This document shows positions 1,373 to 63,373 of a stretch of 64,000 nt of DNA, piece after piece; within the stretch, counting starts at the first letter, position 1; every line of letters begins with the position of its first letter. Position numbers and translations under genes: made by a program. The notes below the pieces were generated by a model that was given only the letters and a program-made list of their open reading frames with translations, did no database searches and was not told where the DNA came from. Source of the stretch: Alphaproteobacteria bacterium (GTDB taxonomy: Bacteria > Pseudomonadota > Alphaproteobacteria > Rs-D84); assembly GCA_017443235.1 (NCBI GenBank), contig JAFSOV010000017.1, forward strand, positions 32,947-96,946, given 5' to 3'.

Positions 1373-1644
1373 TTTCTGTTCCCTTTTTATTTCGGGCAAC
1401 CAAGATTCAAATGATTTTGGCACCCATTGGTTAAACAACTTTTTTTCGGGGCGCATAAAGATTCGACTATGCGCGGTGCCACCCGAATTTATCACTTTTT
1501 TGTTTTTAGAACCGGCTCCGTGGTTGTTAGTCACATCAATGCCTTGTTCTAAAACTAACATGTGGGAATTCTAAAACCAAATACACACAAAAGCAAGAAA
1601 TAATAAAATACTTTTAATTAAATACACATAAAACATCTTATCTG

Positions 1645-1678
1645 GTCCCCCTTCGCCCCACCGGCTACGGGCGACACT
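1645..1678 (-). repeat. compact copy of the tRNA-linked GC hairpin module (AGTGTCGCCCGTAGCC..GGGGCGAAGGGGGAC)
   Basis: Same core as 1783-1848, 24131-24192, 46006-46072 and 58148-58179. Confidence 0.6.
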
Positions 1679-1782
1679 CCTTCGCATAACTTTTCCGTTC
1701 GGGTGGCCTGCCACCCGAAGCGTCAAAGACGCGAAGGGTGGTGCCCGCAGGGTGCCAGAAATGTTCCAGATGATGTATTTAT

Positions 1783-1848
1783 GTCCGCCTTCGCCGTTCA
1801 TCATAAAGAAATCTGCGACAAAAAACGGGGGGGCTACGGCGCGACACT
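1783..1848 (-). repeat. tRNA-linked module AGTGTCGCGCCGTAGCC ... GGCGAAGGCGGAC
   Basis: Lies directly after the tRNA-Thr terminator hairpin. The same two conserved ends recur after three other tRNAs. Confidence 0.65.
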
Positions 1849-8667: not shown

Positions 8668-9234
8668 ATGAAGCGTTTTATTTTTATTTTATCCGCAATT
8701 TTTTTAACCGCGATGCCGGCGTTTGGGGCGGATGGCAAAAACACCTTTACCGGTTTTTATAAAAACCAATTATCGTTCAATATTGGCCAGGGTATAAACA
8801 GTGGATTCATATTACCCCCACCGAACCAATTCGTTCCATTTAACCTGTTCAGCCTAAGTTATTCGCAACCGACAACATTTTTTGGTGTTCCGGCGCGCCA
8901 ATCTTTAAACGTCAACCAGACATTGGGATACGGCGACAAATATGGTTGGCATTGGCGCGACTATACGATTCCAATGGTTATGTTATCGGGTGATGTGCGG
9001 TTATCAGAATACAAAAATTTCTATGTCGCCGCCGGCGCAGGTGTCGGTATGCAGGCACAACAGAACGAACGCCTGGGCGCAAAATTACTGTTTCAGTTCA
9101 AGGTTATTGCCGGTTGGCACATAAATGACAAATGGGGGTTTGAAATATTTATGCACCATTTTTCAAACGGCAACACCGCACCCCAGAACTATTCATACGC
9201 ATTTTACGGCATCGGTGTAAATTATAATTTTTGA
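8668..9234 (+). CDS. PagL-like lipid A deacylase / acyloxyacyl hydrolase outer-membrane protein
   Basis: Signal peptide, beta-barrel-like sequence, HHFSNGN catalytic-type motif, C-terminal aromatic residue. Confidence 0.6.
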   Translation: MKRFIFILSAIFLTAMPAFGADGKNTFTGFYKNQLSFNIGQGINSGFILPPPNQFVPFNLFSLSYSQPTTFFGVPARQSLNVNQTLGYGDKYGWHWRDYTIPMVMLSGDVRLSEYKNFYVAAGAGVGMQAQQNERLGAKLLFQFKVIAGWHINDKWGFEIFMHHFSNGNTAPQNYSYAFYGIGVNYNF

Positions 9235-9419
9235 TGGTTATTATTACTAAATAATTTGTGATTGCGCACATAAAACTGGCGCGACAACAAACCAAAAATC
9301 AAAGACAGTTCACTGAATGTGAATTTATATTTTGGATGTTTATCAAAGAATTTTTCTAAACAGAAAATCAGCGATTCTTTATGTAATTTTTCTAGATATT
9401 TATCTGCTTCTGATTGCAT
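9222..9419 (-). CDS. 65-aa cassette protein (class 1, KHPxY motif)
   Basis: ATG at 9419 with AAGGAA RBS. The track start at 9443 is a TTG. Homologous to ORF 15509-15691 (KESLIFCLEKFFDKHPKYKFTFSELSLIFGLL vs KEELITAVLDFYSKHPNYRMSQNEFVGLICAI). Confidence 0.6.
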   Translation of the reverse strand: MQSEADKYLEKLHKESLIFCLEKFFDKHPKYKFTFSELSLIFGLLSRQFYVRNHKLFSNNNHQKL

Positions 9420-9451
9420 TTTTAATTCCTTGGTTTTTTTCAAAAGTTATC

Positions 9452-9630
9452 AAAAAACCGTCCAGAAAAATCAAGACGGTTGGAGGTTAAAGACTATTAC
9501 ACCAGAAATAGGTGGGCTTATTCAATATATTCGCCTCCCTCCAACCATCGGTTGGAGGTATTTTGTGTCCCCTCGGACACTGGTGTAAAACATGGGTCTT
9601 TAATCCCCAATCAACAGAACACCCGTTGAC
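9452..9630 (-). ncRNA. structured leader RNA, cassette copy A
   Basis: Helices 9596-9603/9487-9494 and 9580-9587/9498-9505. CCTCCAACC (9558-9550), GGTTGGAGG (9546-9538) and CCTCCAACC (9486-9478), the last overlapping terminator 9481-9456 plus a T-run. Compensatory changes relative to copy B. The 5' end is only approximate. Confidence 0.65.
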
Positions 9631-9672
9631 GCCATAAATATACAATAAAACACAAAAAAATCAAATCAAAAA

Positions 9673-9770
9673 TAGTGGTTAGTGGATAGAGTAAGTGGTT
9701 AGTAGATTCTGGAATAGTTTCGTAATTGTGCGCTTATTCCAGATATAACTAACCACTAGCCACTAACACC
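9673..9770. repeat. palindromic array of TTAGTGG-type heptads around a CTGGAATA/TATTCCAG hairpin
   Basis: TAGTGGTTAGTGGATAGAGTAAGTGGTTAGTAG ... CTAACCACTAGCCACTAAC. Confidence 0.8.
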
Positions 9771-10500: not shown

Positions 10501-11142
10501 TTACCCACTTTTATCAAACCTATTTGTAATGATTTCCATAACACAACATCAATATATCCCCGCGGAAGCCCGGTCGCCGCAACCATATGCGCGAACATAT
10601 CATCACATGCCCGTTTTACATCCGGCGTCAATTTACCATTTTCGTCTATACGGCGGATTCCGGCGTATTGCGCGCCCAAACGGCGAATCCAAACATCATA
10701 TTTTACTACATCGACGCCCAAATTCCGCGCCAAATGATTCGCGGTAATTTTTCCAATATGCGGCAATTGCGCCAGATATTTTAATCTATATTCATCAGTT
10801 GCGCATTTATAAAAACCATCGCACAGCGTGGCGCGATTATCCCAAATTTTACAAATTGCATTTATTTTATTTTTGTTATGAAACATTTGAAAAATCGCGT
10901 CAAAATCCGCACCATTTTTATAAATGTAATCCATAATATTTTTATGAATCCGTTTTGCGGTTTTTTGTGAAAACCCGCCCGCCAAGATTACATAGGCGCA
11001 CATTTCTGCGAACGCGTCCGGCGCAAGTCTGCGCGGATGTGCCAACATTTCGCGAATTTCATCAAAAGATTGGGCGTCACTGTCCGCGCCCATATCTTTT
11101 ATTTTTTTCTCTAAATCAAAGAACCATTTTGCAGAAAACATA

Positions 11143-15508: not shown

Positions 15509-15691
15509 CTAAATATCACTCATCATTTGTTGGGTTATTGCACAAATTAAACCAACGAATTCATTTTGGGACATTCTGTAATTGGGATGTTTAGAATAAA
15601 AATCCAAAACCGCGGTAATCAATTCTTCTTTGCCGGAATAAACCTTTACTTTGGGTTTTGTAATATTTTCTCCTTTTGATTTATTTAACAA
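15509..15691 (-). CDS. ~55-60-aa cassette protein (class 1, KHPxY motif), start uncertain
   Basis: Homolog of 9222-9419. The track start TTG lies inside the leader terminator T-run. AAAGGAG is followed by ATT. No in-frame ATG lies near the 5' end. Confidence 0.5.
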   Translation of the reverse strand: MLNKSKGENITKPKVKVYSGKEELITAVLDFYSKHPNYRMSQNEFVGLICAITQQMMSDI

Positions 15692-15872
15692 AAAACCGCC
15701 CGGAAAAAATCAAGACGGTTGGAGGTTAAAGAACTATTACGTTAGAAATAGGTGGGCCTTATTCATTTATTCAGGCCCCCTCCAACCGATGGTTGGAGGG
15801 TTTTTATGTCCCCACGGACACTAACGTAATAGAGGTTCTTTAATCCCTCATCAACAGAACGCCTGTTGACAA
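15690..15872 (-). ncRNA. structured leader RNA, cassette copy B
   Basis: Helices 15835-15843/15726-15734 and 15821-15828/15738-15745. CCTCCAACC (15799-15791), GGTTGGAGG (15787-15779), CCTCCAACC (15725-15717). Terminator plus T-run ends about 15690. Confidence 0.65.
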
Positions 15873-15913
15873 TGGAAACATATAATAAAATCAACTAAAA
15901 ATCAAATATAAAA

Positions 15914-15937
15914 TTCCAGAATCTACTAACCGCTAAC
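15914..15937. repeat. TTAGNGG-type heptads overlapping the stop codon of the upstream gene
   Basis: Minus-strand reading: GAGTTAGCGGTTAGTAGATTCTGGAA. Matches the arm of the 9673-9770 palindrome. Confidence 0.7.
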
Positions 15938-28191: not shown

Positions 28192-30605
28192 TGAATAATT
28201 TTTTTGAATTTTTTGCCGGTGGTGGAATGTCTAACAGCCTGACTTTGACGGTTATGGTTGCGGCTGTTATTTTTATGTTTATTGTACTGATGATGTTTAT
28301 TCCAACAATTATTAAACATATATTTCCAAAATTTGGATATAAACATTATGCTGAATACATACCATTTCAAACGGTTTATACAGATAATTCTATTGAATTA
28401 GATGATGGTTGTTTGGTTCGTGTGTATTCGGTTGCCGGTGTCCAAACCAGTATGCAAACCGAAGAGAATCGTGCAAAGTTTTTAGATTTGCGTGCACAAT
28501 TATTTAATCAAATACACGACCCGAATGTTATTATGCGTTTTTTTACAATTCGTGATGCGGCCGGCGAAAATACGAACTATGAATTTGATCAACCGGTTTT
28601 GCAAAAAATATATGATAAATGGCATTCCCAGGGATTAAAGATTTTCCTTAATAATTATTATATTGTTTTATCTGTGCGTGGCGCATCTGCGCGTGACAAA
28701 TTGAATCAGTATGGAAATTATATTGAATCTATACTTGCGCCGTACAAACCAGTTATGTTAAAAAATAATTCGCGTTATAATATGGCACGGTTTTTTGGTC
28801 GCATACTTTCGCCAATAACAAAACCAAAACCTGCCGTTTGTGATGAAAAAATAACAGAACTGACAACGGTTGATGATGTTGAATTTATGCGTAATGGTAA
28901 TATAAGGTATGTAAGTGGCGACCGCGAATATTATGCGGCATTATTGTCTTTCCGTGGCGCACCGGATTATTTAGATGAAGATTTCTTTGATTCTGTGAAC
29001 ACAATTCAAACAGAAATGATTTGCATGAACGGTTTCAAGATTATGGATGCCGCCGCGGTCGATGCCACTTTGCGTCAACGCCGCAGTGCCGCCGAAAAAG
29101 AAAATGATTCAACCGAAGAACAGATTTCCAGTGCTGAATCGGTTATGGATGAAAATGTTTCCGGAAATCAAACATTGGTCAATTATTATCCTTTGTTTAT
29201 ATTATTTGGTAAAACCCCCGAAGAATTAAACGAATATGTTGACGAGTTTAAGAAAATTTCTGCATCGTTTGGTGTATCACCAATCCAAGAAAATTTTGCG
29301 TCCAAGGTTTCTTGGTTTTCGATTGTGCCCGGTTTCGATACATTCCCACGCACATTCAAAATGTTATCACGTGCCGCGGCAATATCGGTGCCTATGTCAA
29401 CCACACCGCGCGGTGTTACGAACAGCGATTGGGGTCCGGGACCATTGGTTGTATTCCCCACCGCCCAGGGCACACCATATCAATTCCAATTCCATGTTTC
29501 TGACCGGCCCGCCGCGGTTGGGCATACTTTGACAATTGGTCCAACGGGTGGTGGTAAAACAACACTGTTCTCGTTCCTTATTGCGCAATCACTGCGTCAT
29601 AAAAAATTAAAGGCATTTTTCTTTGACCGTAACAAAGGTGCCGAAATATTTACCCTTGCGGTTGGGGGAAAATATGTGACAATGCAGGGTAAAGAGAAAA
29701 ATGAAGAAAGTTTTTTAACACACCTGAACCCATTGAAAATGCCGGATACGGTTGCAAACCGGGCTTTCCTGCGGCGTTGGTTTGCAATGATATCTGAACA
29801 AAACGATGCATTATCTGCGGACGAAATTGCACGCGCGGTTTCTGTGAACTTTGATTATCTGGTCGATAAAGACCGTATGTTAAAGAATTTGTATGAAAGT
29901 TGTTTTTCATCAAATGGTAAAATGCGCCCTGCCCTTAAAAAATGGGTTGACCCGTTGCAGTACGGTGAAATATTTAATGAAGAAACCGACACGCTTGACC
30001 TGCAATCACGTTTAACAACATTCGACTTTACCGATATTTTGCAAGATGCGACATTGGCACCTGCGGTTATATCATATATATTGCACAGAATAAATAATAC
30101 GACCGTATCTGGTGGAAATCCGTCTTTGATTATGATTGATGAAACCGCGCCTATGTTGGAAAACAAAATGTTCCGCGATAATTTTATTGCGGGACTTCAA
30201 GAAGGAAGAAAAAATCGCCAGGCATATATGGTCGCATTCCAACGCGCAAATGTTTTGGATAAATTGGGAATTGGTGATGTCGTTCGTGGCCAGGCCCAAA
30301 CGATTATGTTCTTCCGTAATCCGGCGGCGGATGCGGCGGATTATGAACATTGGAATTTGAATCCATTGGAAATGGCGTTTATCCAAGGTAAAGCATATCC
30401 AAACCTGAAACGTGCGGTGTTATTGATGCGCCCGGTGAATAATGAATCTGTTATTTTGAATACAGAACTTGGTGGACTTGGAAATCTTTTAAGATTATTT
30501 GAATCGGGTCGTTCATCGGTATTGTTGGCCGAAGAATTATATAATCAATTTGGTTCGAATTTTGTTGCGGAATACCTTAAGAAGCAAGGTGCAGGTGATT
30601 TTTAA
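28191..30605 (+). CDS. virB4: type IV secretion ATPase VirB4
   Basis: 804 aa. Walker A GPTGGGKTT, Walker B LIMIDE. Confidence 0.9.
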   Translation: MNNFFEFFAGGGMSNSLTLTVMVAAVIFMFIVLMMFIPTIIKHIFPKFGYKHYAEYIPFQTVYTDNSIELDDGCLVRVYSVAGVQTSMQTEENRAKFLDLRAQLFNQIHDPNVIMRFFTIRDAAGENTNYEFDQPVLQKIYDKWHSQGLKIFLNNYYIVLSVRGASARDKLNQYGNYIESILAPYKPVMLKNNSRYNMARFFGRILSPITKPKPAVCDEKITELTTVDDVEFMRNGNIRYVSGDREYYAALLSFRGAPDYLDEDFFDSVNTIQTEMICMNGFKIMDAAAVDATLRQRRSAAEKENDSTEEQISSAESVMDENVSGNQTLVNYYPLFILFGKTPEELNEYVDEFKKISASFGVSPIQENFASKVSWFSIVPGFDTFPRTFKMLSRAAAISVPMSTTPRGVTNSDWGPGPLVVFPTAQGTPYQFQFHVSDRPAAVGHTLTIGPTGGGKTTLFSFLIAQSLRHKKLKAFFFDRNKGAEIFTLAVGGKYVTMQGKEKNEESFLTHLNPLKMPDTVANRAFLRRWFAMISEQNDALSADEIARAVSVNFDYLVDKDRMLKNLYESCFSSNGKMRPALKKWVDPLQYGEIFNEETDTLDLQSRLTTFDFTDILQDATLAPAVISYILHRINNTTVSGGNPSLIMIDETAPMLENKMFRDNFIAGLQEGRKNRQAYMVAFQRANVLDKLGIGDVVRGQAQTIMFFRNPAADAADYEHWNLNPLEMAFIQGKAYPNLKRAVLLMRPVNNESVILNTELGGLGNLLRLFESGRSSVLLAEELYNQFGSNFVAEYLKKQGAGDF

Positions 30606-30606
30606 T

Positions 30607-31218
30607 ATGTTAAAAAATATTGTAATTTTTGCACTGTGTTTTTTACCTGTTTTGTCTTTTGCAAACGATTGTGTTAAATACAAACAAACACCAAGTATAA
30701 ATGTAAATTCGCCGATATATAAAAAAAATATTATTCAATCAAATGAACAAATGGATAAATTTCACGGAAATGTGATTGCCACATTGGTTGAAGATTACGA
30801 CATTGCGGTTGATATATTTTCAACGCCTGGCGGATATTGTGTTGTATTAAAATCTGTGGATGCGTTGATTGGATATAACGATTTTTCTGTTAAAATTGAT
30901 GGTTCGCATAAATCGGGTTCTTGTTCATATAATGCGGTATTGAATCACGAAGATAAACATATAAATGCATATTTGTCTGTGATGGATGATTTAGGTATGG
31001 ATATAAACAGTTCGATATTTAATGCCGCAGATTCAATAATGCCAATATTTGTATCATCACGTGATGATATAGATTTTGCGGTGGAAGAAATAAATTATGA
31101 AATGCGTCAACATCCAGAATTGATTTTAATGAAACAAAAAATCAACGCAGCCCAAGAAATTCGTAATAAACGCGTTGACCAAAACGAAGATAATCACGAA
31201 TTAAAATCGTGTTTATAG
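30607..31218 (+). CDS. secreted protein with HExxH motif (putative Zn-metallopeptidase, DUF922-like?)
   Basis: Start at ATG 30607 (MLKNIVIFALCFLPVLSFA signal peptide). Contains LNHEDKHINAY. The track start at 30499 lies inside virB4. Confidence 0.45.
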   Translation: MLKNIVIFALCFLPVLSFANDCVKYKQTPSINVNSPIYKKNIIQSNEQMDKFHGNVIATLVEDYDIAVDIFSTPGGYCVVLKSVDALIGYNDFSVKIDGSHKSGSCSYNAVLNHEDKHINAYLSVMDDLGMDINSSIFNAADSIMPIFVSSRDDIDFAVEEINYEMRQHPELILMKQKINAAQEIRNKRVDQNEDNHELKSCL

Positions 31219-31239
31219 TGGTTAGTGTTAGTGGTTAGT
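31216..31239. repeat. TTAGTGG heptad array beginning at the stop codon
   Basis: TAGTGGTTAGTGTTAGTGGTTAGT. Confidence 0.8.
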
Positions 31240-31263
31240 AAAACGGCGCATTGCGCCGTTTTT
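31240..31263. terminator. bidirectional intrinsic terminator
   Basis: AAAACGGCGCATTGCGCCGTTTTT between two convergent genes. Confidence 0.8.
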
Positions 31264-31474
31264 AATTCATCTTGCATCGCAACATACAAAAACCGCGAGT
31301 GAATAACGTTATTAAAATATTTTCTGGAATTGGTTCTTTGCCGCATTCGTACCTGTGCCATTGTCTAACAGATATATGAAACATTTTCGCCAAATCTTTT
31401 GTTTTCATATTTTGATTTTTTCGTGTGCAACGCAATATTTTTCCAAAATACTTTGAATCAACCAATACAACCAT
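31262..31474 (-). CDS. 70-aa XRE-family helix-turn-helix protein (cassette class 2)
   Basis: MKTKDLAKMFHISVRQWHRYECGKEPIP is a typical HTH. GGAGG RBS. Paralog of 62627-62854. Confidence 0.75.
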   Translation of the reverse strand: MVVLVDSKYFGKILRCTRKNQNMKTKDLAKMFHISVRQWHRYECGKEPIPENILITLFTRGFCMLRCKMN

Positions 31475-31499
31475 TTTTTACCTCCATATTTTTATTGTT

Positions 31500-31651
31500 A
31501 AAAAACCGTCAATGACAGGTTGACGGTTGGAGGCTAGAAAACCACATATATAAGATGGGTGTCGCTTATTCAATATATTCGCGACCCTCCAACCAAGTGG
31601 AGTTTTATATATATAGGGATTTTCTAGACCCCGCAACGGTGTCATCCGCGC
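31500..31651 (-). ncRNA. structured leader RNA, cassette copy C
   Basis: S1 31627-31619/31542-31534. Hairpin 31585-31561 (GTCGC, loop, GCGAC). GGTTGGAGG 31594-31586 vs CCTCCAACC 31533-31525, overlapping terminator 31528-31504 plus a T-run. Confidence 0.7.
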
Positions 31652-31657
31652 AAGCGT

Positions 31658-31686
31658 ATTATAATTGAAAACGGTTGCGATTGCAA
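31658..31686 (-). promoter_or_regulatory. sigma70 promoter of cassette C, embedded in the dnaG terminator hairpin
   Basis: TTGCAA (31686-81), 17 nt, TATAAT (31663-58). Same architecture as 62367-62395. Confidence 0.65.
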
Positions 31687-31694
31687 CCGTTTTG

Positions 31695-31789
31695 CAACTA
31701 CCCCGCCACCGCTGGTGGCCCTCCCCTTCTGAATCCACCCCAAAAAATTTCATTTTTCGGGGGCCCCGGTATAAGAAGGGGACTATCCA
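31695..31789. repeat. CCCCTTC/GAAGGGG...GGGGTAG REP-like unit (variant)
   Basis: Minus-strand reading: TCCCCTTC...GAAGGGGAGGGCCACCAGCGGTGGCGGGGTAG. Related to 43914-43960, 54259-54394 and 62558-62603. Confidence 0.55.
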
Positions 31790-33403
31790 CTAAACCAACA
31801 TTTCAAATTTTTCACGCATACGGGAAATTTCATCGTCTATACGGCGGATTTCCACGCTTACATCATTTTCTCCGGCAAGACCACGCGCGGTTAAATCACG
31901 TTTTTGTTTTTCTAAACTTTCAATATATTTTTGAATCTTTAACGAAATTATATACTTTTCCGCGGAATTCAAATCTAAATCAAAGTTTGGTTTTATATTT
32001 GAATCCAAATCCAGGTTAAATTTACTAATAAAATCGCCATACCTTTCGGCAATTTCCGGATATTTATTTACAATGTATATAAGTATGTTTTTGATAACAT
32101 TATCAATTTCTGGAACTTCTATATTTGATGAATTTTTTGAACCGTTATAATCTCGCCATTCTTTATATCTGCGATTTTTATAATCACGTTCATATTCATA
32201 CTTTAATAAATTATCTTGTATTTTATCTGTGCTTTGTTTCAAGAATTTTTCTGCCTGGGTTCGACCGGATGGCGTTTTTATTAAAAAATTCTTATTTGCT
32301 ATATTCCACAGAAAATCAACCAAAGGAACCGCATTGTTTATAATTTTCTCCATTTCCCCCCTGCCCGATTTGCGCAGTATTTCATCCGGGTCTTTGCCGC
32401 CCGTCACAAATGCAAAACTGACATTCGAATTATCACGCAAGAACGGTAATATTATACCGCACGCACGTGCCGCGGCCTTTTGTCCCGCGTTATCACCATC
32501 AAAACAGAAAACAATATTCCGGTTTGCCTTGCATAAAATTGCGATATGGTCTTCGGTCAATGCGGTACCAAGTGGCGCAACCGTTTCACCAAAACCATTA
32601 CATTGCATTTGAATTGCATCTATTTGCCCCTCTACAATAATTGCGCGGTTTGCGCGGTGTATATTTTCGCGTGCAAAATTAAACCCAAACAAAGTTTGCC
32701 GTTTGTGAAACATTTCTGTGTCTGTGGTATTTATATATTTTGGCTCTGACCCGTCCAGGCTGCGCCCGGAAAAAGCAACAATTTGCCCCCGCGCATTAAA
32801 AATTGGAAACATCAATTTATCGCGAAAGAAATCGTACAGGCCATATTCACCGCGGCGTACCAAACCCGTTGCAATAAGTTTTTCTTGTTTTGTGTTCACA
32901 AATTTATTTGCAATTATGTTATTTTTTGGTGCGTACCCAATACCATATTTTTTTATCATTTCATCACTGAACCCGCGCCCACGTATGTAGGACAGCGCAT
33001 GTGCACCTTCGGGTGCGAATAATTTTTCCGCGTATATTTTTGCCGCCGCGGTTGTAATTGTCACATATGTTTCTTCGGCCTCGATTTGTTCTGCGGTTTT
33101 TGGTTTGTATTCCGGCAACTTTAATCCCGCCATATCGGCCAATTCGGCAATTGCGGTTTTGAAATCAACATGTTCACTTTCCATAGTAAAAGAAATAATA
33201 TCACCGTGTTTTCCGCAACCAAAACAGTGATAAAAACCTTTTTCTTCACTGACCGAAAAAGATGGTGTTTTTTCATTATGAAATGGGCAACACCCCCAAT
33301 AATTTTGACCTTTCTTGACCAGTGGTACACGACGGGATATAACGTCTACGATGGAAAGTCGTTCACGTAATTGGTCGGTAAAATTATTGTCATATTTCGC
33401 CAT
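31790..33403 (-). CDS. dnaG: DNA primase
   Basis: Zinc finger CPFHNEKTPSFSV...CFGCGKHGD. TOPRIM IIVEGQIDA. Confidence 0.9.
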   Translation of the reverse strand: MAKYDNNFTDQLRERLSIVDVISRRVPLVKKGQNYWGCCPFHNEKTPSFSVSEEKGFYHCFGCGKHGDIISFTMESEHVDFKTAIAELADMAGLKLPEYKPKTAEQIEAEETYVTITTAAAKIYAEKLFAPEGAHALSYIRGRGFSDEMIKKYGIGYAPKNNIIANKFVNTKQEKLIATGLVRRGEYGLYDFFRDKLMFPIFNARGQIVAFSGRSLDGSEPKYINTTDTEMFHKRQTLFGFNFARENIHRANRAIIVEGQIDAIQMQCNGFGETVAPLGTALTEDHIAILCKANRNIVFCFDGDNAGQKAAARACGIILPFLRDNSNVSFAFVTGGKDPDEILRKSGRGEMEKIINNAVPLVDFLWNIANKNFLIKTPSGRTQAEKFLKQSTDKIQDNLLKYEYERDYKNRRYKEWRDYNGSKNSSNIEVPEIDNVIKNILIYIVNKYPEIAERYGDFISKFNLDLDSNIKPNFDLDLNSAEKYIISLKIQKYIESLEKQKRDLTARGLAGENDVSVEIRRIDDEISRMREKFEMLV

Positions 33404-58414: not shown

Positions 58415-58445
58415 GAATTATGTATTTGATAAGTTTATAGAGATA

Positions 58446-58600
58446 AGAAAAGCAGGAGGGTCATAACTACTCAAAGCAAAATAGTCCAGTGTATTGGGTA
58501 TTTCACTGGCCTCCTGCCATTGTGAAGTGTGCAGGATTTTATGTCCGCGCGGACATGCTTTGAGCAGGGCTATGACACCCCCTTGTACGGTTGCCCGTAC
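58446..58600 (-). ncRNA. candidate ~155-nt sRNA of unknown family
   Basis: TTGAAA (58635-30), 17 nt, TATAAT (58612-07). Several hairpins. A closing stem with a 3' CCTCCTGC followed by TTTTCTT. No plausible ORF. Confidence 0.35.
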
Positions 58601-58711
58601 AAAGCAATTATAAATGTAATAAAGATTTTTTTCAATACATAAAAAACACCGGCATTTGCCGATGTTTTTCACTAACCCTTGTCCACCGAAGCCCAAAGGG
58701 CGAAGGCGGAA

Positions 58712-62341: not shown

Positions 62342-62357
62342 GTGTTAGTGGTTAGTG
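62342..62357. repeat. TTAGTGG heptads immediately after the accC stop codon
   Basis: TAA-GTGTTAGTGGTTAGTG. Confidence 0.8.
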
Positions 62358-62366
62358 CGAAAACGG

Positions 62367-62395
62367 TTGCAATTGCGGCCGTTTTTATTTATAAT
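62367..62395 (+). promoter_or_regulatory. sigma70 promoter of cassette D, embedded in the accC terminator hairpin
   Basis: TTGCAA (62367-72), 17 nt, TATAAT (62390-95). Confidence 0.65.
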
Positions 62396-62401
62396 GTTTT
62401 C

Positions 62402-62554
62402 GCATTGGGTGACAACCATTGCGGGGTCTAGAAAACCCCTTTAACACAGCAAAATCTCCACTTGGTTGGAGGGTTGCGAATATATCGAATAAGCAACACT
62501 GTTTTGTGTTACAGTTTTCTAGCCTCCAACCGTCAATCATTTTGACGGTTTTTT
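62402..62554 (+). ncRNA. structured leader RNA, cassette copy D
   Basis: S1 62428-36/62514-22. Helix 62442-54/62502-11. Hairpin 62473-97. GGTTGGAGG 62464-72 vs CCTCCAACC 62523-31, overlapping terminator 62528-50 plus a T-run to 62554. Confidence 0.7.
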
Positions 62555-62557
62555 AAT

Positions 62558-62603
62558 CCCCTTAACATTGTGAAGGGGGGGACCACCGGGGGTGATGGGG
62601 TAG
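62558..62603. repeat. REP-like unit CCCCTTAACATTGTGAAGGGG..GGGGTAG between the leader terminator and the HTH ORF
   Basis: Same family as 43914-43960 and 54259-54394. Confidence 0.65.
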
Positions 62604-62626: not shown

Positions 62627-62854
62627 ATGGTCACATTGGTTGATGCGAAATATTTTGGCAATCTTTTACGATTTGCACGCAGGCACAGTCGCCTAAATTC
62701 AGACGAAGTTGCAAGGATATTTTCAATATCCGTTCGGCAATTGCATAGATATGAACAGGGCAAAGAAGTAATCCCGTGTAATATTTTACAATCTTTGTTT
62801 CATCATGGATTCTGTTTGTTGCGGTGCCGACGCATACCACCAAAACACAAATAG
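62627..62854 (+). CDS. 75-aa XRE-family helix-turn-helix protein (cassette class 2)
   Basis: ATG 62627 with AAGGAG RBS. MVTLVDAKYFGNLLRFARRH...VARIFSISVRQLHRYEQGKEVIP. Paralog of 31262-31474. Confidence 0.75.
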   Translation: MVTLVDAKYFGNLLRFARRHSRLNSDEVARIFSISVRQLHRYEQGKEVIPCNILQSLFHHGFCLLRCRRIPPKHK

Positions 62855-62877
62855 AAAACGGGCGCGATTGCGCCCGC
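62854..62877. terminator. bidirectional intrinsic terminator
   Basis: GAAAACGGGCGCGATTGCGCCCGC between two convergent genes. Confidence 0.7.
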
Positions 62878-62908
62878 ACTAACCACTACCACTAACACTA
62901 ACCACTAA
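62877..62908. repeat. inverted TTAGTGG heptad array abutting the sspB stop codon
   Basis: CACTAACCACTACCACTAACACTAACCACTAA. Confidence 0.8.
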
Positions 62909-63373
62909 TCACTTCTTCCGCCGTCTAAATTCATCCAATGATACAACGCGGCCGGTGTCGGGAATTGTGTCACCCGTTCCTTCCAATGGTAATTCTATAT
63001 CATTGTCCGGTGCAGACGGTTTCGGGCGTTTATTAAACGACAATATAAAATCAACCGACGGGTCTTTGAATTCCACCAATGCCGAAAAAGGAACGCGAAT
63101 AAAAAACGGCCGCCCATCAAACGTCAATTGAACACCAAATTCTTTGTCCGACACGTGCAGGTTATTATAAGAATACTGCAACACAATCGTCATTATGTCC
63201 GGGTATCGTATACGCAGGAAATCCGGCAATACAACCCCCGCATCATGCGTGCGAAATGTTATAAAGAAATGCGTCCCGTCACCCAGTCCGTTTATCTGCG
63301 CAAAAACCAACGCATCACGCACCACAGATTTTAACGCCGTGTCCAACAAAGCCTGATAGTCTATTTTTGCCAT
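62909..63373 (-). CDS. sspB: ClpXP adaptor SspB (alphaproteobacterial type)
   Basis: HFFITFRTHDAGVVLPDFLRIRYPDIMTIVLQYSYNNLHV...FIRVPFSALVEFKDPSVDF. Confidence 0.7.
   Translation of the reverse strand: MAKIDYQALLDTALKSVVRDALVFAQINGLGDGTHFFITFRTHDAGVVLPDFLRIRYPDIMTIVLQYSYNNLHVSDKEFGVQLTFDGRPFFIRVPFSALVEFKDPSVDFILSFNKRPKPSAPDNDIELPLEGTGDTIPDTGRVVSLDEFRRRKK

Follow-up and report, generated by a model that had tools for sequence, protein, structure and literature searches.

The element considered here, termed copy C, is a structured RNA encoded between dnaG, the gene for DNA primase, and a gene for a small helix-turn-helix (HTH) protein, in a 64,000-nt stretch of DNA (hereafter the window) from Alphaproteobacteria bacterium, GTDB lineage Rs-D84 (assembly GCA_017443235.1, contig JAFSOV010000017.1, positions 32,947 to 96,946, forward strand). 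The best reading of copy C, to which we give a probability of roughly 0.55, is that of a leader RNA that acts in cis to attenuate transcription, measures about 150 nt and is transcribed from a sigma-70-type promoter of its own; its terminated product would also be a small RNA (sRNA). Copy C belongs to a previously uncatalogued leader family, attenuator-type in its layout and distantly related to the catalogued sRNA-Xcc1.

Architecture and covariation of the leader RNA

The pair of 9-mers GGTTGGAGG...CCTCCAACC, reported as conserved in the initial annotation of this DNA and present in copy C as the segments R2 and R3 (Table 1), has four occurrences in the window (copies A to D), where 0 are expected. 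A diverged copy, E, was found by covariance model R1 and not by the 9-mer pair. Beyond the window, the family has at least 90 further copies in metagenome-assembled genomes (MAGs) of gut and rumen Alphaproteobacteria (Candidatus Enterousia and relatives). A scan for the 9-mer pair in one genome per species returned 119 stretches, most of them from gut or rumen MAGs labelled Candidatus Enterousia, Alphaproteobacteria or Rickettsiales. Seventy-five distinct full-length leaders were extracted and aligned with MAFFT without regard to structure (alignment A2). In nearly all 75, a TATAAT box is kept 6–8 nt upstream of P0, the hairpin at the 5' end, and in the family R3 is followed by a terminator with a run of U and then, usually, by a Shine–Dalgarno (SD) sequence and a start codon within a few tens of bases.

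The core of copy C is a three-way junction in which the R2:R3 helix closes the hairpins P4 and P5. Two long-range pairings join the 5' domain to this core: S1, between the loop of P1 and the junction beside R3, and P2, with the loop of P5. P1 and S1 together (first loop 2 nt, second stem 6 bp) would have the geometry of a classical H-type pseudoknot.

RNAalifold, applied to the 75-sequence alignment, returned P0 and the 9-bp helix only; the other helices were specified and then tested by pair counting. For P0, P1, P3, P4, P5 and the inner stem of the terminator (A2, n = 75), 90.2% of the cells are paired, against 78.5 ± 0.5% after shuffling, and the double-sided changes in local helices number 404, against 141 ± 13 in the shuffles, with the kinship of the copies ignored in this count. 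When, as a control, the 3' partner was slid by 1–3 columns, pairing dropped to 33–57%. S1 has 124 double-sided changes against 38 ± 6 in shuffled sequences (kinship again ignored), with 31–37 at each of its three central pairs. P2 has a different sequence in almost every copy, so it was tested without an alignment; the median number of consecutive pairs is 7 within a copy, 4 between copies and 4 when the loop is shuffled. Finally, the helices contain 271 G.U against 54 A.C combinations, an excess which indicates that the structure belongs to the RNA of the leader strand.

The initial annotation had claimed that the stems of copy C are kept by compensatory substitution, and on this the alignment of C with D and the covariation among the 75 homologues agree, with support for every helix that it had named. 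In P4, the change from GTTGC/GCAAC in D to GTCGC/GCGAC in C is one double compensatory change around a loop that is, as described, near-identical (GAATATATTGAATAA in C, GAATATATCGAATAA in D). The two strands of the inner helix, P2 (ATATATAA/TTATATAT in C, AACAC..AAAA/TTTTGTGTT in D), are wholly different in sequence in the two copies and complementary in each, and S1 (CTAGAAAA/TTTTCTAG) is found in both, with one C:G pair of D being U.G in C. Further compensatory changes between C and D lie in P0 and P5. Between C and its 84%-identical orthologue at L121, a locus elsewhere (L numbers denote our loci), GUCGC/GCGAC in P4 becomes GUCAC/GUGAC, and P2 is replaced as a block.

The loop of P4 carries, in L024, L064, L078, L088, L094, L006, L016 and L102, an inserted short hairpin between GAAUAA and AAAUAA (e.g., GGCUUGCC). 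The two A/U-rich strands then form an internal loop, as they do in hairpin 1 of sRNA-Xcc1.

The switch segments and a proposed mechanism

The invariance of R2 and R3 in the 75-sequence set was imposed by the scan pattern and is uninformative on their pairing. Diverged copies that lack the exact 9-mers were recovered with covariance model R1, and in these R2:R3 is kept by two-sided changes: the R2/R3 pair is GGCAGGAGG/CCUCCUGC in E and L059, GGUCGGGG/CCCCGACC in L066, GGUUGGAGU/ACUCCAACC in L017, L009 and L075, and GAUUGGAG/CUCCAAUC in L035. At a distance of 3–8 nt on the 5' side of R2 there is a third segment, R1, which can form 7 or more contiguous pairs with R2 in 68 of the 78 copies. On A2 this segment is 96.4% paired, its variation being almost all from C to U with the wobble retained, and it tracks the altered R2 in E, L059, L066 and L017; in copy E, all three 9-mers have changed compensatorily. 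The 3' arm of the terminator, which was outside the search pattern, ends in GGUU and pairs with AACC, the last four bases of R3, in 72–73 of the 75 leaders. The pairings R1:R2, R2:R3 and R3:terminator are mutually incompatible all together, yet each is maintained.

The terminator AACCGTCAA/TTGACGGTT with its U-run, which the initial annotation had noted as overlapping, is present. What has to be refined is the part played by the GGTTGGAGG/CCTCCAACC helix, which competes both with an upstream third copy, segment R1, and with this terminator; the element is therefore attenuator-like rather than a static fold. The layout is that of an attenuator, with R1:R2 as the anti-antiterminator, R2:R3 as the antiterminator and the terminator behind them.

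By default, R1:R2 would form first, R3 would be left free, the full terminator would form, and transcription would stop, giving an abundant small RNA and little HTH mRNA. In keeping with this default, R2 pairs with segment R1 in 69 of 72 leaders in nested folding. Some cue would favour the closure of the core by R2:R3, probably aided by the docking of the 5' domain via S1 and P2. The closed core would withhold AACC, so that the hairpin would end four bases before the U-run and RNA polymerase would continue into the gene. A protein or a ligand at the conserved GAAUA...GAAUAA loop of P4 might provide the cue, as might kinetic or physical conditions. The P4 loop, which behaves as an internal loop, is the obvious candidate for the place where a factor binds or a tertiary contact is made. 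The terminated RNA may act in trans too.

A connection in cis is suggested by what lies behind the leaders. In most copies, an SD and a start codon on the same strand come close behind the U-run, which leaves no space for a separate promoter. The genes behind the leader fall into two groups, namely small HTH proteins of the XRE type and signal-peptide proteins that are often rich in Cys. Copies C and D are followed by XRE-type HTH genes that the initial annotation had called paralogous, and the identity between their products is 57% (E = 9e-30). Searching with the protein alone recovered orthologous C-type HTH genes (84% and 54% identity), which have the leader directly upstream and other neighbours downstream. 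The same leader stands ahead of many genes for secreted or surface proteins in related genomes; it is thus not private to the HTH gene.

Several observations weigh against attenuation. Enforcing R2:R3 in nested folding carries a large penalty, with a median of about 11 kcal/mol (nearest-neighbour model, pseudoknot energy ignored), so antitermination would need either strong stabilisation from outside or the pseudoknot energy that the model leaves aside. The covariation of R2:R3 and R1:R2 is drawn from some nine diverged copies that are partly related among themselves, and segment R1 makes only 5 bp in C and D, which is shorter than in most copies. There are also copies without genes (the four tandem leaders of L075, and copy E, which stands before a tRNA and has no terminator), and these fit better with a free-standing sRNA. 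Rfam scans of the window and of 31200–31800 recognised no known riboswitch or RNA-binding-protein motif, and the start site, termination and read-through are all deduced from the sequence.

Comparable systems and alternative explanations

The leader shares several features with classical attenuators, such as the trp leader (1:2, 2:3, 3:4) and riboswitch platforms. Of its three successive segments, the second is able to pair with the first or with the third, and part of the third belongs also to the terminator stem. Thermodynamically, the conformation with the terminator is favoured by default, and between the promoter and the start codon lies a GC-rich hairpin with a U-run, which is conserved in the family. 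It differs from them in that the family alignment contains no conserved leader peptide, no known aptamer or protein-binding motif was recognised, and a large pseudoknotted domain surrounds the switch. Moreover, the genes concerned are regulators and surface proteins, not those of one metabolic pathway.

A scan of the window at the Rfam gathering thresholds gave five tRNAs only, and a permissive scan over 31200–31800 gave only sRNA-Xcc1, below threshold, with no match to c4 at E <= 10. sRNA-Xcc1 (RF02221) is an 88-nt sRNA of Xanthomonas campestris (PMC2996969), which has been reported upstream of symE in integron cassettes (preprint 10.1101/2025.06.18.660453) and is also found in Xylella genomic islands and in prophages. 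Against RF02221, copy C scores 28.3 bits and L066, L083, L075 and L059 score 30.5–38.5, so that the gathering score of 53 is not reached; four bona fide members on viral contigs score 59.5–84.2 bits. Reciprocally, covariance model R1 matches one bona fide Xcc1 with 16.8 bits (E = 8e-4) in the same register. Both RNAs have a three-way junction with a 9-bp closing stem, and R2:R3, P4, P5 and the junction align on the helices of RF02221 in cmscan. In both, hairpin 1 has an A/U-rich internal loop (AUACAA...GAA in Xcc1, GAAUA...AAUAA in the family) around an optional upper stem, and the second hairpin is followed by a U-rich junction (UUUUGAG against UUUCGAA or UUUUCUAG in the family). The 5' domain, which is outside the Rfam model, is shared by the Xcc1 loci L213, L216, L224 and L228. 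In Xcc1 loci, the loop of a GGG-UCUCAAAA-GCCC hairpin pairs with the UUUUGAG junction, and the variable strand pairs with the hairpin-2 loop in changing sequences (AAGAAG/CUUCUU, UCGAAAC/GUUUCGA, GAACAG/CUGUUC and GGUACAG/CUGUACC). Both kinds of RNA occur as cassettes of an RNA plus a small gene, often in several copies.

The two kinds of locus differ in what follows the core. In the four bona fide Xcc1 loci, both target strands are repeated just before the next start codon: the 5' strand of P2 is fused to the SD (AAGAAG-GAG, GAACAG-GAG, GUACAG-GAG), and a second CUCAAAA precedes the ATG. No such repetition is found in the window family (77 leaders). The family's closing stem is AT-richer and is flanked by segment R1 and the R3-overlapping terminator, whereas Xcc1 loci are without such a terminator; the host lineage and the downstream genes also differ. 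From the sub-threshold scores together with the shared architecture, we regard the window family as distantly related to Xcc1 but equipped with another expression platform; by the Rfam criterion it is not a member. The Xcc1 loci themselves suggest that sRNA-Xcc1 is the core of a c4-like cis-regulatory leader.

Another system to be compared is Brt of Bartonella, a multi-copy structured RNA of about 200 nt that is highly expressed directly upstream of a small, poorly transcribed XRE HTH gene (Tu et al. 2016, PMC5387305). The 3' end is proposed there to resemble a terminator or riboswitch, with the RNA acting in trans as well, and the regulon includes a surface adhesin (PMC5387305). The window family likewise includes multi-copy RNAs directly before an XRE-type HTH gene (C, D and many loci elsewhere) and has a link to surface proteins, with the leader preceding many genes for secreted or surface proteins; in L009 and L116, it precedes XRE proteins with the Trp-like '...FQQIQKYE...'. 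However, the Brt of plasmid pBGR3 lacks GGUUGGAGG/CCUCCAACC, the GAAUA loop and the U-run terminator, and the copy C HTH protein has 70 amino acids against 108–152 in the Trp proteins. Covariance model R1 found no match at E <= 10 on pBGR3, where the Brt copy was located by the published probe, and a word-indexed protein search with the 70-residue HTH protein found five close relatives only and no link to the Bartonella Trp proteins. What the two systems share is architecture, not detectable ancestry.

Xcc1 and Brt raise the possibility that copy C is a free-standing gene for a trans-acting sRNA, the terminator of which merely ends the sRNA and the downstream gene of which is a passenger of the cassette; the RNA would then pair elsewhere, for example via CCUCC segments resembling an anti-SD or via the exposed P5 loop and junction. 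The element has its own conserved promoter and a strong terminator, for sRNA-Xcc1 itself an sRNA of 88 nt was detected (PMC2996969), strong expression of the Brt RNAs goes with hardly any transcription of the trp genes downstream (PMC5387305), the tandem leaders of L075 have no intervening genes, and copy E lies upstream of a tRNA gene. We nonetheless consider this explanation unlikely, if the most serious of the alternatives, because the great majority of copies stand directly before a same-strand gene with no space for another promoter, because the overlap of R1, R2, R3 and terminator is hard to explain for a plain sRNA, and because the candidate seed regions are already paired inside the RNA. 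It is, in any case, compatible with the role of an attenuator, and both were proposed in the Brt paper (PMC5387305).

A second alternative is modelled on sRNA-Xcc1 or on the c4 antisense RNA (RF01695) of phages P1 and P7. In c4, a1 and b1 target copies lie upstream. The resemblance to c4 consists of a small structured RNA that shares an operon with the gene under its control and precedes it there (c4, then icd and ant); of short, variable complementary segments that set the specificity, to which the hypervariable P2 is analogous; and of the downstream gene, which in relatives of the Xcc1 type can be KilA-N antirepressor-like, as is the protein encoded downstream of Xcc1 in L213. According to PMC8198154 (citing Citron & Schuster 1990), the c4 RNA of phage P1 acts on a site within its own c4-icd-ant operon. 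By analogy, the P5 loop and the junction of copy C would bind target copies of the 5' domain at the ribosome-binding site (RBS) and so control translation, with the 5' domain as a decoy. The presence of this very duplication in the four bona fide RF02221 loci and the resemblance of the family core to Xcc1 speak for such antisense control, but the window family has no target copies at the RBS and has instead a canonical terminator in that position, its control being apparently by termination. In addition, the complementarity of the P5 loop is 6.10 to the 130 nt downstream of its own copy and 6.00 to those of other copies, and that of the junction is 5.81 and 5.67, respectively, which is no enrichment (77 leaders). 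We therefore regard this explanation as very improbable for copy C.

Least probable of all is a mobile DNA element (the boundary of a cassette resembling a miniature inverted-repeat transposable element, MITE, or a repetitive extragenic palindrome, REP) with inverted repeats kept by selection on the DNA, or by mere persistence, and no RNA function, for although the element is multi-copy (five in 64 kb), is flanked by heptad arrays with a REP-like unit nearby, and forms with the HTH gene a unit found in differing genomic neighbourhoods, its tolerance of G.U is strand-specific, its promoter and U-run terminator are conserved on one strand, its helices are compensated while their sequences diverge completely, and its position before start codons is constant.

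A broader and more tentative idea, which we would not back at even odds, is that this leader and sRNA-Xcc1 are two branches of one widespread and unrecognised class of self-addressed cis-regulatory RNAs. In such a class, the three-way-junction core would be docked by its own 5' domain through the semi-conserved S1 and the hypervariable P2, and the latter would serve as a copy-specific 'address' that prevents cross-talk among the many copies in a genome. The outputs would be interchangeable: the R3-overlapping terminator in the Enterousia-like gut Alphaproteobacteria, and the RBS decoy in the GC-rich Xcc1 loci of prophages and integrons. In the Enterousia-like lineage, the class would act as a genome-wide switch co-controlling XRE regulators and secreted or surface proteins.

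The copy C locus, its relatives and their significance

The sequences and coordinates given for copy C in the initial annotation all proved correct when checked against the DNA (Table 1). It had placed copy C directly after the stop codon of dnaG, the identity of which is confirmed by its Pfam domains, and had described a REP-like unit and then a hairpin carrying the promoter, as in D; this layout was borne out. The design of hairpin with promoter is common to C, D and L121. In L121, an upstream gene for a 559-residue protein is followed by the same arrangement of stop codon, hairpin and promoter without the GC-rich unit, and the unit in copy C is probably an insertion, being absent from this orthologous locus. 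Its second copy (TCCCCTT...GAAGGGGRGGRCCACCRGSGGTGRYGGGGTAG) lies in cassette D at 62556–62603 (+), and there is no other in the window; in C it stands before the promoter and has a nested 38-nt insert, and in D it stands between the terminator and the SD. The start site of copy C was placed from the position of the -10 box, and 25 nt separate the end of the terminator from the HTH gene.

Table 1. Positions of the leader elements, the neighbouring features and the related copies (window coordinates unless a locus is named)
Feature	Position	Strand	Remarks
dnaG open reading frame	31790-33403	-	DNA primase; Zn-ribbon, DNAG_N and Toprim domains (Pfam)
dnaG TAG stop codon	31792-31790	-	inside heptad-like GTTTAGTGGATAG
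GC-rich palindromic REP/MITE-like unit (TCCCCTT...GAAGGGGAGGGCCACCAGCGGTGGCGGGGTAG)	31782-31698	-	3' of dnaG stop
Hairpin AAAACGGTTGC-AATC-GCAACCGTTTT	31693-31668	-	putative dnaG terminator, read from sequence; -35 box in stem
Promoter TTGCAA-17-TATAAT	31686-31658	-	TTGCAA 31686-31681; TATAAT 31663-31658
Predicted leader RNA/sRNA (copy C), about 152 nt	31651-31500	-	predicted start site to end of U-run; 114 bits with covariance model R1
P0, 5' hairpin (GCGCGG...CCGUUGC)	31651-31633	-	16-38 double-sided changes per pair across the family
P1 hairpin GGGG-UCUAGAAAA-UCCC	31632-31616	-	loop 31627-31620 is 5' strand of pseudoknot S1
P2 5' strand AUAUAUAA	31612-31605	-	hypervariable 'inner helix'
Segment R1 (CUCCA)	31602-31598	-	complementary to R2; proposed anti-antiterminator strand
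R2 GGUUGGAGG	31594-31586	-	able to pair with segment R1 or R3
P4 hairpin GUCGC/GCGAC	31585-31561	-	conserved loop GAAUAUAUUGAAUAA
P5 hairpin (CCAU...GUGG)	31558-31542	-	loop holds P2 3' strand UUAUAUAU (31553-31546)
Junction, S1 3' strand UUUUCUAG	31541-31534	-	pairs with P1 loop
R3 CCUCCAACC	31533-31525	-	closes three-way junction with R2; AACC also base of terminator stem
Intrinsic terminator AACCGUCAA-CCUGUCA-UUGACGGUU + U6	31528-31500	-	
HTH gene, XRE/Cro-C1-type	31474-31262	-	70 aa; SD GGAGG at 31485-31481
Bidirectional terminator AAAACGGCGCA-A-UGCGCCGUUUU	31263-31240	both	perfect; between convergent genes; read from sequence
Heptad array, GTTAGTG-like units	31239-31214		contains TAG (31216-31218) of plus-strand reading frame 30499-31218
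Copy A	9438-9648	-	150.6 bits
Copy B	15676-15888	-	140.4 bits
Copy D	62384-62568	+	136.9 bits; followed by paralogous 75-aa HTH gene starting at 62628
Copy E, diverged	58415-58622	-	66.7 bits; R2 GGCAGGAGG, R3 CCUCCUGCU, segment R1 UCCUGC; no terminator
Heptad arrays of the window	9671-9704, 9747-9767, 15924-15937, 31214-31240, 62344-62357, 62877-62909		
Xcc1 loci with 5' domain and RBS repeats	L213:3440-3690; L216:~10760-10990; L224:~1180-1420; L228:~1550-1790		

The cassette was said to end in a bidirectional terminator and a heptad array that holds the stop codon of the last gene of a convergent virB operon. The terminator, the array and the stop codon are as described, and the plus-strand open reading frame (ORF) 30499–31218 does converge on the HTH gene and sits 3' of a VirB4 homologue; no Pfam match was found for this ORF, and its identity as a VirB protein is not supported. 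The HTH protein of copy C alone stays under the cut-off (HTH_19, 25.9 bits against 30.2); at the level of the HTH family, HTH_31 is matched by 15 of 19 members and HTH_19 by 13 of 19, and the family profile matches XRE-type PDB chains down to E = 2e-8.

A 91-codon ORF at 31478–31753 (-) spans the entire copy C leader, its end lying within the SD of the HTH gene. Since neither D nor the family alignment conserves it, it is most likely spurious. Leader-peptide attenuation by means of this ORF was rejected by inspection, as the ORF has no SD and the indels in the family alignment are not multiples of three. An internal promoter, TTGAAT-17-TATATG, in the conserved loop of C was also rejected by inspection, its -10 box lying in the hypervariable P2 and being absent from D.

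The heptad arrays were located by a search for TAGTG-N2, which has 11 matches in the window against 0.17 expected; the arrays are almost confined to the flanks of the leader cassettes and occur also in L024, L044, L059 and L088. Of the 20 arrays at leader-bearing loci, 19 are no more than 600 nt away from a leader; control loci yielded 1 array in 383 kb. Often the arrays are arranged as an inverted pair just 5' of the promoter, and some share bases with the stop codons of adjacent genes. The arrays could be candidate operator sites for the HTH proteins of the cassettes or, alternatively, the boundaries of the cassettes.

As to the other copies in the window, E lies between mreB and tRNA-Val/metG, upstream of tRNA-Val, and a variant similar to it, with a terminator, is found at L059:6033-6238. 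The small ORFs after A (9220–9418 (-)) and B (~15510–15665 (-)) are paralogues with the motif ...F(F/Y)xKHPxY(K/R)..., and neither has a match in Pfam or NCBIfam. That after B has no canonical start codon behind its SD and may either be initiated at ATT or be in decay.

Elsewhere, L075 has four minus-strand leaders in tandem (35–232, 254–458, 706–906 and 925–1131) with no space for genes between them, two of which have strongly diverged 9-mers (GGUUGGACA/UGUCCACCC and GGCUGGUGU/GCACCCGCC). Strong matches to the leader (127–159 bits) were also obtained in bins or contigs labelled as Bacteroidota or as viruses, namely L029 (a Bacteroides fragilis bin), L006, L022 and L067 (a Muribaculaceae bin), and L126, L127, L129 and L130 ('viral' contigs of IMG/VR). 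Of these, L029 hardly differs from L010, which comes from a Pseudomonadota MAG. The labels probably reflect mis-binning or misclassification rather than a real spread, although a mobile element might also have carried the leader. When the leader was compared by blastn with a plasmid collection, noise alone was returned.

The finding would give the poorly known uncultured Alphaproteobacteria of the gut and rumen a large and well-supported family of structured RNAs, which has 90 members or more and is marked by two long-range pairings. The arrangement of R1, R2 and R3 offers a simple, tractable system for a new attenuator. The cassette of an sRNA plus an XRE regulator, so far described as a peculiarity of Bartonella, is matched by an independent counterpart outside that genus. 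sRNA-Xcc1, which has been known since 2010, is annotated in many pathogens and prophages and lacks an accepted mechanism, is perhaps the core of a longer cis-regulatory leader. Finally, with its leaders standing before transcription regulators and many secreted proteins, the family is a candidate for a lineage-wide regulon of host interaction.

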